DNA from: a virus
Lineage: Duplodnaviria; Heunggongvirae; Uroviricota; Caudoviricetes
Virus record (IMG/VR): IMGVR_UViG_2778261537_000015
Location: 1 to 20,528 of that record
Length of the DNA stretch: 20,528 nucleotides
Strand: one strand, 5' to 3'
Part shown: positions 9,001-12,000 of the stretch, one piece after another
Position numbering within the stretch: position 1 is the first letter of the stretch
How the letters are laid out: each line of letters begins with the position of its first letter
Program-made: the position numbers

Positions 9001-12000
9001 AAAATATTGCTATTGTGAAAAATCTGGATTTCATTCTTTCCCCTTGTAAATTTTCCTCTGTTTGTATCCGTTAACTGAAGCAAAAGCACGCAACAGTTAG
9101 TTTTGCGCAGGATACCAGATGATAATGTGTAGTTGGAGTAGCGCGGTTTTAATGCAAGCATTTTGTTTTTGTTTTATGCTTGCTTGTATGTGTGTGCAGT
9201 GCATATAATGCAAGCATAGATCACAACAAAGGTGCTTGCATTATGACTGAAAAGAAAAGTGGTGAAGGGAAAGCTAAGGGCGGGATCGCTCGCGCAAAGT
9301 CGCTGACTAAAGAGCAGCGTTCTGAAATAGCAAAGAAAGCAGCGGCTGCAAGATGGAAAAGTAAGATTCTCAGAGCAACTCATCGTGGTAACTTTTTAGA
9401 TGATTTTGGCATTGATGCTGAATGTTATGTACTGGATGACGAGTCGAAAACTGTCGTTGTTACGAAAACTGGATTATCTCAGCTGCTAGGGATTGGTGAA
9501 CATGCCAGGGATTTAGATCAACTGCTTGGCGCTCAGTATATGAGCAAATACCGAGATCTAGAATTGCAGCGAAAAATGGAAAATCCCTATAAATTTCAAC
9601 TTACTTCGAAGTCTAAAACCGTTCATCAAGCATTAGGTTATGACATTACAGCAATTGTTGATATTGGTAGGGCACTAATAGAAGCCAAAGATAATGACGA
9701 TCTACCACAATCACGGTTAAAGGCCGCGGCTGCAGCGCAGAGACTTATTAATGCCTCCGCTAAGGCGGGAATTAAGGGGGTTGCGTATGCGCTTGCTGGT
9801 TATCGTCCAGAAGTTCAGGCTGTCATTGACGAGTTCAAAGCGTTTGTTCGTGAAGAGGCTCGTCAATATGAAAAGGAATTTCCAGATGAGCTATACGAGG
9901 AGTGGTATCGACTGTACGGCCTGAACAGGCCAGAGAAAGGACGGCCTATTCGTTTTGGGCAGCTAACCAACATGCAGATATACACCCCGCTAGCAAAGAG
10001 TAAAGGTAAAATCCTTGAACAGATTCGAGCTAGCCGAGACGAGAACGGAAAACAATCTGATAAGTTGCACCTGTTCCTTTCTGAAATTGGTGTCAAGGCT
10101 TTGCGTCAGCATATCGGTAAGCTTCTTGGTGTCGCAGCGATGAGTGAGACAAGAGAAGAATACGAAAAAGGAATAGAAAAGGTTTTTGGAAGAATGAAAC
10201 CAGAAATCTAATTATGAAACCCACCGTCAGGTGGGTTTTTTGTTTAGCAGTTCTCTCAACTTTTCGTTCTGTTCTCTGAATTTTTCCTGTATTTCTTTTT
10301 GCATGGCGATCACTTGGGCTTGAAGTTGAACTAGCGCATCAACATTTAGCGGAACCGAGACGCTGTTGATTTTGTCTGCTATTTCCCCAAGAGTATTTTC
10401 TGCATTCAAGGCATCTTCCAGTATCTGCACAATCTCTGAGTTCATAGAGCGCCCGTTTCGTTTGGCTCGTTCAGCTATAGCATCTCGCATTCCGTCAGGA
10501 AAACGGAGGTTGAACTTGTCGTAGTCTTTTACTTGTTTTTCGGCCATTGCAAATCTCTCAAAAAAAATCATGGTGCCATATTGCCATACGATTTCAATGG
10601 TGGCATTATGGCCTTCATGGCGTCACTTTGGCACCAAATAAAGGAGATTAGATAATGCAAGATACACTTTTCACTGAGCGCAAAAATATCAAACTCAACC
10701 TTCGCCTTCCATCACGGCTGAATGAAGACCTTCGCCGCCTGGCGGAAATGGACTGTATATCTCTGAACTCTGCAATTGTTCGTTTGCTGGCAAAAGGTGT
10801 TAGGGAAGAGGTGGCGAATGGTCGCTAAAAACAGCGAAGCCCCAATGGCTGCAACCATTGAGGCTTCTAAATTACCAGTTAACCACGAGAAAACTGATAT
10901 GACTAGTTTAGCAATTGCAGATCGCACAATCAATGTTCCATTCCACGGAACAAATCTCTTTTTGGTCAGCATTAACAATGAACCTTACGTTCCTATGAAA
11001 CCCGTTGTAGAAGGCATGGGTATGGTTTGGGCTGCTCAATTTGTTAAGTTAAAACAGAGGTTTGCCAAAGGTATTTCGGAAATCGAAATACCTTCTGCTG
11101 GCGGTAAACAGTTAATGACATGTCTTGCCTTTCGTAAATTTGCGGCTTGGCTTTCAAGTATTCAACCAAACAAAGTCCGTCCTGAAATCCGCGACAAGGT
11201 AATCCAGTATCAGGAAGAGTGTGACGATGTGCTCTACGAGTACTGGACTAAAGGCCATGTGGTTAACCCACGCAAAGCTAAAAAGGCGTTGCCGGGCAAA
11301 ATCACCACTGAACAGCAGGAAGCCATTAAACAACTCGTCATGAGTCGCGGTCAGTCTCTGCCAAAAGAAAAACAGGCTAAGGCGATGATCACCATGTGGT
11401 CGTCACTGAAATCCCATTTTGGATGTTCGTACAAAGAAATCAGTGAGGAGCAGTTTACCGAAGCACTGTCACTTGCTGCTCGTATTCCGCTTGAAGGCGA
11501 ATTCATCGGCAAGTCGAAACATAATGAGATGAGTTGTTTTGATTGGAGGATGAATGTTCATAACCTGAACTCGGCGTGCATTCATCTTGATGCCATGTAC
11601 AGAATATGGAGAGACGAAATGGAACCCGCTTTGCGATTGCTTGGCTCTCCGGTTGCGACCAGATTTTGCGGAAGAATTGCAGATTGCTATTCCGTAACTG
11701 CAAGCGTTAAGAAAAGTCTGGAGGATGCCGCAGGGCTGAAAGGCTTACAACCATTTTAACTACCTGCACGAAAAGTGCAGGTCAAGAACAAACGCAACGA
11801 CCCAGCTTCGGCTGGGTTTTTGTTTAATGGAGAGTAGATGGGCATAATCGATTTAAACACAGCAGACATATTCAATGCTATCGGTGGTGGCTCTCCGCTT
11901 TCGATTATCGACAGCGTTCTGCATCCTCAGTATGTGATTCGTGACAGGGAAACTGGCGAGGTTGCTCTTGAGTTCAGCGGTATGGCATCCGTACAGCCAA

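Follow-up and report, generated by a model that had tools for sequence, protein, structure and literature searches.

A P63C-family phage gene under a conserved four-box operator: a candidate self-repressed accessory cassette

We have analysed a 20,528-nt stretch of DNA from a virus of the Caudoviricetes (IMG/VR record IMGVR_UViG_2778261537_000015, positions 1 to 20,528; this whole stretch is hereafter called the window), and within it a gene of the P63C family together with the promoter, operator and terminator that surround it (Table 1). The open reading frame (ORF) at 9243-10211 is a real phage accessory gene of this uncharacterised family. A mechanical ORF listing extends the gene in the 5' direction to a TTG at 9180. 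We prefer the ATG at 9243 as the start, since AGGTG lies 8 nt upstream and the position fits box 4, a conserved operator element that abuts or includes the ATG of dozens of homologues.

The membership of the gene in the family is firm. Pfam PF10546 (P63C) matches residues 199-286 of the protein with an E value of 6.8e-14 and 52.7 bits against a gathering cutoff of 26.1, spanning profile positions 3-92 of 93, and the match is reproduced with the C-terminal fragment alone. The profile phrog_2384 matches over the full length (E 1.7e-104, residues 6-321 against profile positions 4-328 of 338). A first-pass annotation of this DNA had assigned the protein to P63C from recall, and the assignment was correct; the Pfam search that it proposed as a check returned P63C itself as the confident match and not another characterised family. 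PHROG 2384 is annotated as 'unknown function'. The identical protein WP_000136767.1, present in about 100 complete Escherichia coli genomes, is named 'P63C domain-containing protein' in RefSeq, and the UniRef name 'Bacteriophage Mx8 p63 C-terminal' occurs among the homologues. Membership of the window protein in P63C and PHROG 2384, and its annotation as P63C, are already known. We found 1,682 homologues of the window protein, with conservation over the full length, and the full-length family comprises 3,097 clusters at 50% identity. No NCBIfam match was obtained for the window protein, and none of the defence families in PADLOC-DB v2 was matched at E up to 1. A literature search on the P63C domain, the accession, and the PHROG and Pfam identifiers returned no function, and 'P63C domain' occurred in incidental mentions only. 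The domain was reportedly defined in a 2002 paper.

An AlphaFold2 model, built on an alignment of 53 sequences, divides the protein into three parts (mean pLDDT 76.8). A helical hairpin at residues 11-39 is predicted with low confidence (pLDDT 55-68), an alpha/beta domain at residues 41-135 is well predicted (pLDDT 85-94), and a helical region at residues 137-315 contains the Pfam P63C domain. The basic N-terminal segment KGGIARAKSLTKEQRSEIAKKAAAARW at residues 12-38 is the most conserved stretch of the family, and G13, G14, R17, A30, R37 and W38 are invariant in 53 of 53 aligned sequences. Accordingly, the Lys/Arg/Ala-rich N-terminal segment described in the first-pass annotation is present and is the most conserved part of the family. 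The helical domain placed after this segment holds for the C-terminal region, but the intervening alpha/beta domain had been skipped. The structure prediction suggested as a further check gave the three-part model, but comparison of the model with solved structures in the PDB showed nothing similar. In a Foldseek search against BFVD, the best match was an unnamed phage protein (E 3.6e-3, probability 0.99), and the matches that bear names (Bro-N, Ant N-terminal, 'repressor domain', 'regulatory protein') were weak (E 0.06-0.25), with E values of 0.1-0.25 and TM scores of 0.2-0.5 for the Bro-N and Ant-N matches.

Upstream of the gene lies a TTGCTT-18 nt-TATAAT promoter, and around it are four boxes, each an exact or one-mismatch copy of ATGCAAGCAT. 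The boxes form two inverted pairs, with 24 nt from start to start within each pair and 56 nt between the pairs. Matches to the 10-mer number five in the window as a whole, a count that was reached by 19 of 100 shuffles and so is not significant alone. The striking feature is that four of the matches lie inside 90 nt, with no second box cluster elsewhere in the window, and comparative conservation settles the operator. A sigma-70 consensus scan missed the promoter; its -35 hexamer matches the consensus at 3 of 6 positions. At the other end of the gene, a bidirectional intrinsic terminator is common to the P63C gene and a convergent Mnt-like gene. The dedicated operator control, the own promoter and the own terminator that had been proposed for this gene are thus all borne out, the operator being conserved across homologues as well. 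An mRNA hairpin between boxes 3 and 4 was ruled out by geometry, because box 3 abuts the -10 hexamer and hence lies upstream of, or at, the transcription start.

The spacer between the -35 and -10 hexamers of the window (9184-9199) reads TTGT-N8-GCAG, a degenerate LexA-like element. The promoter spacers of many enteric relatives hold TTGT-N8-ACAG, and one locus has the full CTGT-N8-ACAG. This SOS (LexA) box is not present in the window promoter, and LexA control was rejected because the LexA-like box is degenerate there. The spacer element may represent an SOS input, present or past, or it may reflect mere shared ancestry.

To follow the operator beyond enteric bacteria, we scanned one genome per species and collected 80 loci encoding full-length P63C relatives, most of them only 45-50% identical to the window protein. 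They originate from Acidobacteriota, Myxococcota, Alpha-, Beta- and Gammaproteobacteria, Firmicutes (as metagenome-assembled genomes), Chloroflexi and others. In 64 of 82 loci, the 260 nt that precede codon 13 hold at least three GCAAGC/GCTTGC hexamers, against about 0.13 expected by chance according to our own arithmetic. The exact order GCAAGC, GCTTGC, GCAAGC, GCTTGC, with spacings of about 23, 31-32 and 24 nt, occurs in 38 loci, and four boxes are present in 60 of 79 viral loci. In the operator consensus, the 5' half consists of aTGCAAGCAt, about 14 nt, and aTGCTTGCAt; in other phyla box 2 is ATGCTTGCAT, which gives a -35-like TTGCAT. After 17-18 nt, the 3' half consists of a TAnAAT-type -10 hexamer abutting TGCAAGCA, about 15 nt including GGA, and TGCTTGCATG, in which ATG is the start codon. 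In most homologous loci the TAnAAT-type hexamer directly adjoins box 3. Outside the window, the last bases of box 4 are in most loci those of the start codon (GGATGCTTGCATG). Since intergenic DNA would not be expected to remain alike at such protein divergence, we consider that the boxes are under selection.

The boxes also vary together with the protein. Every four-box locus encodes a P63C protein with the ...ARW motif, and the four homologues that are without the basic motif (L069, L070, L078 and L081) are all without boxes. In an acidobacterial subfamily the N-terminus is extended and altered (...AAKxLSxLGAxKGGEARA...IQARW), and the operator differs as well, with TATACTTGC...GCAAGTATA around a TTGACT -35 hexamer; in full it reads TATACTTGC(T/C)CGGGCA ... 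TTGACT ... CTCGGGCAAGTATA. Two further loci, L009 and L063, carry TGCTTGACA/TGTCAAGCA variants of the box. Within enteric bacteria, a second P63C allele was seen in a P22-like prophage of E. coli (L084, 6001-6993). It is 54% identical to the window protein overall, with the first ~38 residues identical and the rest different, and its operator is near-identical with the same four boxes. Such a pattern implies that a recombination joint lies directly behind the N-terminal motif.

Which protein would act on these boxes can be approached through what accompanies them. The P63C gene is the only component that is constantly present with the boxes. All-against-all clustering of the loci showed no neighbour conserved throughout, and the clusters with high counts are off-frame ORFs inside the P63C gene or antisense frames of the transposase and of a small ORF that accompany many relatives in IS1-like transposons, described below. 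In enteric copies the boxes are retained, although no neighbour is conserved and the transposase and the small ORF are absent. Sister transposons, which have the same inverted repeats, transposase and small ORF and other cargo, have no box cluster. The transposase and the small ORF were thereby ruled out as box binders. Mnt was ruled out as well, given that in E. coli the identical P63C allele and operator stand beside three different Mnt alleles and that the immI module (Mnt-like gene, Arc and Ant) exists without P63C.

The four boxes lie over the gene's own promoter and co-occur and co-vary with the gene, as the operator sites of an autorepressor would. From this co-occurrence, and from the co-variation with the motif, we infer that the P63C protein represses its own promoter with involvement of the N-terminal hairpin; self-repression is the most likely reading of the locus. 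We infer likewise that the protein binds the boxes, that repression follows from binding, which part binds, and that the gene is expressed in lysogens. Stated in full, a sequence-specific DNA-binding P63C protein probably represses its own sigma-70 promoter through the four TGCAAGCA boxes and forms a self-contained cassette, and the part contacting the operator is most likely the 26-aa basic helical hairpin at the N-terminus. In the mechanism that we propose, the P63C protein would occupy the four TGCAAGCA boxes and shut its promoter, with one inverted pair flanking or overlapping the -35 hexamer and the other spanning the -10/+1 region and the Shine-Dalgarno/ATG region. Promoter, operator, gene and terminator would then act as one self-contained cassette at about 9097-10244. 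Among Enterobacterales this cassette is a moron beside the immI region of prophages, and in many other phyla IS1-like transposons carry it. The central alpha/beta domain and the C-terminal helical P63C domain would carry an effector activity, which would be kept low and buffered in the lysogen. In transposons, the protein probably also represses the promoter of the divergent transposase gene.

An alternative is that the boxes are bound by some other protein, be it Mnt, Arc, the main prophage repressor, LexA or a host factor, and that P63C is simply the regulated product. No DNA-binding domain was detected by profile in the P63C protein, and the LexA-like elements of the enteric promoter spacers, one of them complete, would fit such a regulator. 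However, the operator follows the P63C gene through six or more phyla, whether in transposons, in phages or in chromosomes, with no other constant gene; different Mnt alleles occur beside the identical operator; and the LexA-like element is found in a subset of enterics only, has a degenerate form in the window and is distinct from the four boxes. We consider a foreign regulator unlikely because the boxes are linked to the P63C gene across phyla, and this alternative as a whole has a small chance of being right.

Several points weigh against the proposed mechanism. The N-terminal motif is modelled with low confidence, at pLDDT 55-68. A small transposon protein ends in the same motif and is present in elements without boxes, so the motif alone cannot specify TGCAAGCA. 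In the acidobacterial subfamily, the operator is a different one, but the motif is only slightly altered. The homologues without motif and boxes are few (four), and one of them, L070, is possibly a damaged gene. A conserved host factor would be compatible with the co-occurrence of boxes and gene, which does not by itself exclude one. Finally, the effector function is a guess, with no match in PADLOC and none in the literature.

Many relatives of the window gene lie in mobile elements. A gene for a ~278-aa DDE protein is divergent from the box region in 39 of 80 loci; the best matches of this transposase are NCBIfam transpos_IS1 (E 2.4e-13 and 7.6e-18; 50-65 bits, below the NCBIfam IS1 cutoff of 100) and Pfam DDE_Tnp_IS240/IS1. 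Directly 3' of the P63C gene, at least 28 loci have a convergent ORF of ~85 aa that ends in the same 26-aa motif. Inverted repeats of ~20 bp, GGTAGTG(G/T)(G/C)TCAGTTTGAA, lie 2.5-3.9 kb apart and bound at least 22 environmental loci, and 20 of the 22 have perfect 8-bp target-site duplications. On the strength of the repeats and duplications, these elements are bona fide transposons. Relatives within L009-L080 show the set of features typical of IS1, namely GGnnnTG ends, duplications and an IS1-like DDE transposase. The transposon may already be named, for example in ISfinder.

The IS1-like family is spread over many phyla, and each element has the ~278-aa DDE protein, the ~85-aa protein and variable cargo, which may be P63C, MazF/PemK, HigB with HTH, DUF3800 or a 141-aa hypothetical protein. 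In sister elements, the slot of P63C is filled by the 141-aa hypothetical protein or by HigB/Gp49 and HTH_3 with DUF3800, and MazF/PemK is an extra cargo in L017 and L027. The ~85-aa protein lies at the position of InsA and has the motif GGxARAxxLTxExRxEIAKKAAxxRW, as in the N-terminus of P63C. Its family has more than 7,800 matches and is unnamed, and neither Pfam nor NCBIfam has a model for it; where we looked, the protein marks elements with the same ends and transposase and different cargo. A DNA-inversion switch between the motif-encoding 5' end of the P63C gene and the inverted motif-encoding 3' end of the small ORF was considered and rejected, because the DNA of the two is 50-64% identical, mostly no higher than the 46-73% identity of the proteins.

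The window copy has no DDE gene, no small ORF and no inverted-repeat remnant beside it, and the same holds for the other enteric loci. The inverted repeat GGTAGTGGGTCAGTTTGAA was not found in the window at up to 3 mismatches, nor within 8000-11000 at up to 6 mismatches, and inverted-repeat remnants around the window copy were accordingly dropped as a candidate. The window copy is a stand-alone gene and not the cargo of an IS1-type transposon.

These observations bear on the idea that P63C is an accessory or regulator of transposition, which would control the divergent IS1-like transposase gene through boxes 1 and 2 or would help transposition, so that the enteric copies would be orphaned remnants. 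The divergent DDE gene in 39 of the 80 loci, facing the intergenic region that holds the boxes, would suit this role, as would the 26-aa motif common to the P63C protein and the small core protein. On the other hand, sister transposons without P63C have intact inverted repeats around the small ORF, the cargo and the DDE gene, which suggests that P63C is probably not needed for transposition. Moreover, although no transposase or inverted repeat accompanies them, the enteric copies have stayed intact, with 57-100% conservation, and are under selection, and boxes 3 and 4 sit on the P63C start codon and not on the transposase gene. We therefore regard a transposition function as quite improbable.

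Table 1. Features in the window and loci of relatives referred to in the text (window coordinates unless a locus is named)
Feature	Position or loci	Strand	Remarks
Whole mosaic cassette (operator/promoter, P63C gene, terminator)	9097..10244	+	Block boundaries in phage/prophage comparisons
Box 1, ATGCAAGCAT	9152..9161	+	Position conserved in the 38 exact-pattern loci
Box 2, ATGCTTGCTT on + strand	9176..9185	-	Inverted partner of box 1; contains -35 hexamer TTGCTT
-35 hexamer TTGCTT	9180-9185	+	Read from the sequence; inside box 2
-10 hexamer TATAAT	9204..9209	+	18-nt spacer to -35; last two bases start box 3
Box 3, ATGCAAGCAT	9208..9217	+	Over the -10/+1 region; motif scan and conservation
Shine-Dalgarno AGGTG	9230-9234	+	Overlapped by box 4
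Box 4, GTGCTTGCAT on + strand	9232..9241	-	Overlaps Shine-Dalgarno; ends 1 nt before ATG
P63C-family coding sequence	9243..10211	+	ATG 9243 to TAA 10211, 322 aa
N-terminal 26-aa basic motif GGIARAKSLTKEQRSEIAKKAAAARW	9279..9356	+	aa 13-38; predicted helical hairpin, candidate operator-binding module
Central alpha/beta domain	9363..9647	+	aa 41-135; highest model confidence; no Pfam model
Pfam P63C domain, helical	9837..10100	+	aa 199-286; profile search and structure model
Intrinsic terminator hairpin and T run	10216..10245	+	Hairpin 10216-10239, dG -19.2 kcal/mol, z -5.4
152-aa ORF, clear N-terminal signal peptide (MKSRFFTIAIFSSVLLSLAAYAAS...)	8576-9034	-	Divergent from P63C gene
Mnt-like Arc-family gene	10227-10571	-	Convergent with P63C gene
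Arc	10655-10828		
Ant, P22_AR_N domain	to 11759		
IS1-like transposons with duplications	L009, L010, L012, L015, L017, L020, L021, L026, L028, L029, L032, L041, L042, L049, L051, L056, L059, L071, L072, L080		
Acidobacterial subfamily loci	L020, L024, L028, L030, L036, L038, L044, L047, L055, L079		Altered operator upstream of P63C homologue
Small ~85-aa protein, examples	L017 4965-5231; L013 3452-3685; L083 3601-3858	-	
Small ~85-aa protein, further example	L087 4001-4240		

The window holds a prophage remnant of ~17 kb (1249-19520) at a tRNA-Arg(CCU) gene (19446-19520, minus strand), with an integrase gene at 18127-19320 (minus strand), which is flanked by genes for a LacY-type symporter and a formate/nitrite transporter. 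The remnant keeps a tail module of the myovirus type, with neck terminator, sheath, tube, chaperone, SLT-type tape measure and baseplate genes, and has no genes for head, lysis or replication. Their loss by deletion is indicated by an Ead/Ea22+DUF551 early gene (2836-3555, minus strand) that adjoins the neck-terminator gene (3692-4240). Going from the tape measure to the baseplate genes, one meets the 152-aa ORF, the P63C cassette, the Mnt-like gene, Arc and Ant. The 152-aa ORF has no match in Pfam or PHROG, and related prophages have a shorter or variable hypothetical ORF in its place. The same gene arrangement is found in an intact myovirus-type prophage of E. coli KCJ3K291 (L002) and in phage vB_EcoP-611R6, where it lies between the ejection proteins and the tailspike. 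In the P22-like prophage with the second P63C allele, a gene for a ClpP-like protease lies between the P63C gene and Mnt.

The cassette and the immI module move separately. The P22-like podovirus vB_EcoP-611R6 has only window positions 9097-10241 in common with the window, at 98% identity, and many E. coli prophages match from 9100 to about 10244. Conversely, Stx phages have only 10220-11000 in common (97.8% identity), that is, Mnt/Arc/Ant without P63C, and phage 2851 has the Mnt/Arc/Ant module between tail genes L and K and no P63C gene. The accessory position ascribed to the gene at first pass is therefore upheld by a block at about 9097-10244 that moves independently and occurs in a P22-like podovirus as well as in a myovirus-type prophage. 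Over 10220-11760, the Mnt-like/Arc/Ant module of the window is 97.8% identical in Stx1- and Stx2-converting phages, including phage 2851 (L177, 3501-5103). The module is seen between the lambda-type tail genes L and K, between tape measure and baseplate genes of myovirus type, and before the tailspike in P22-like phages; its presence in three tail architectures indicates that immI is a roaming unit.

Considering this neighbourhood, P63C could belong to the Ant/Bro/KilA class of antirepressors and transcription regulators. It would then be a second immI regulator, with prophage repressors or other promoters as its targets. P63C is described in Pfam as the C-terminal domain of phage regulatory proteins of the Bro/KilA type, the gene adjoins Mnt/Arc/Ant in every E. 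coli prophage examined, and the weak fold matches to Bro-N, Ant N-terminal and 'repressor domain' proteins point the same way. To the eye, ECYVLDDxxKTxVV-xxGLxxLLGLG in the central segment looks like the beta-hairpin and helix of Bro-N/Ant-N domains. However, most family members lie in transposons or non-phage contexts without immI genes, and the immI module exists without P63C. No HMM of Bro-N, KilA-N or P22_AR_N matched the protein, and Pfam searches of residues 1-45 and 40-140 were empty at E up to 10. An hhalign comparison with the neighbouring Ant was not significant (probability 3%), and homology to this Ant was dropped on that ground. An antirepressor role is in our view unlikely, if less so than one in transposition.

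The lysogeny-associated effector role that was proposed in the first-pass annotation (exclusion, anti-defence or regulatory) is unproven. Among the effector roles, we rank exclusion, abortive infection or addiction first, an Ant/Bro-like antirepressor second and a transposition accessory third. The first of these is suggested because P63C fills the transposon slot that toxin-antitoxin pairs use in sister elements. In such a module, the protein would be harmful when de-repressed or would sense an incoming phage, and tight self-repression would keep it safe, in analogy to BstA or single-gene Abi proteins; BstA, a prophage-borne defence protein, is a precedent. The cargo slot is otherwise used by HigB/Gp49 and HTH_3, with MazF/PemK co-carried in two elements, and in prophages P63C, which has a promoter and a terminator to itself, belongs to immI, a region rich in morons. 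From general knowledge of toxin-antitoxin systems, operators over the -35 hexamer, the +1 position and the ribosome-binding site are typical of autoregulated toxin and defence genes. This role is also compatible with self-repression, of which it would be the effector half. Against it stand the lack of a match to any PADLOC model, the fact that the enteric cassette includes no antitoxin or immunity gene as a partner, and a conservation of 45-50% across phyla, which is unusually high for a defence protein. We hold it as a tentative possibility, well short of probable. With low confidence, the effector may be described as a Bro/Ant-like protein that acts on foreign DNA or the DNA of mobile elements, or on its regulators, by exclusion, abortive infection or an addiction-like mode.

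The P63C domain is widespread, with carriers among the prophages of E. coli, Salmonella and Klebsiella and of numerous environmental bacteria, and the operator offers a concrete, testable handle, with an 8-bp recognition sequence, a fixed four-site geometry and a predicted self-repression. The transposon context suggests that selection favours the P63C gene as a mobile passenger, as it does toxin-antitoxin and defence genes. Should the effector act in exclusion, abortive infection or addiction, P63C would represent a new family of prophage- and transposon-borne immunity, and DNA binding by the 26-aa motif, if true, would provide an annotation for thousands of small hypothetical proteins; if both are true, both would be new functional types. 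If the protein only regulates itself, it would be an ordinary selfish passenger. As far as the literature and the libraries show, the phylum-spanning four-box operator, the shared 26-aa motif and the role as IS1-like transposon cargo appear to be new. We would go further only with reserve and propose, as a rather doubtful conjecture, that the P63C cassette is a hitherto unrecognised, single-gene, self-repressed mobile module that is swapped with toxin-antitoxin pairs in IS1-like transposons and prophages and serves in anti-phage defence, exclusion or addiction, and that the GGxARA...RW hairpin is a new DNA-binding module shared with the small protein.

In comparison with known systems, the window protein is a member of Pfam PF10546 and PHROG 2384 by profile score. 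The Pfam name comes from p63 of Myxococcus phage Mx8, and the Pfam model covers residues 199-286 only, leaving the N-terminal motif and the central domain outside. Neither these two parts nor the operator and the transposon context feature in the family descriptions that we found. Regulators of the Bro-N, KilA-N and P22 Ant types are similar to P63C in size, in their two-part layout and in an accessory location beside Ant in phages. However, the resemblance in predicted fold to the Bro-N and Ant types is weak, without similarity at the HMM level, and P63C has the extra basic motif at its N-terminus. With the P22 immI region (mnt-arc-ant, sieA), the cassette shares its neighbourhood, between ejection or tape-measure genes and tailspike or baseplate genes, and its convergence with an Mnt-like gene. 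On the other hand, the P63C protein has no homology to Mnt, Arc, Ant or SieA, the P63C operator bears no relation to the intergenic region of mnt and arc, and P63C is separable from the immI module. The elements of the relatives resemble IS1-family elements with passengers in their GGnnnTG-type ends (GGTAGTG...), 8-bp duplications and a DDE transposase matching IS1 best, and a small upstream protein sits at the position of InsA. They differ from the IS1 family in a transposase below the IS1 cutoff and in a length of 2.5-3.9 kb with cargo. Finally, type II toxin-antitoxin cassettes and BstA differ from P63C, which is a single gene with no PADLOC match, no KilA-N domain and a higher conservation across phyla, but they are like it in being self-contained cassettes with operators over their own promoters and in being carried by prophages or transposons, and the HigB/HTH and MazF modules occur in the same transposon family and slot as P63C.

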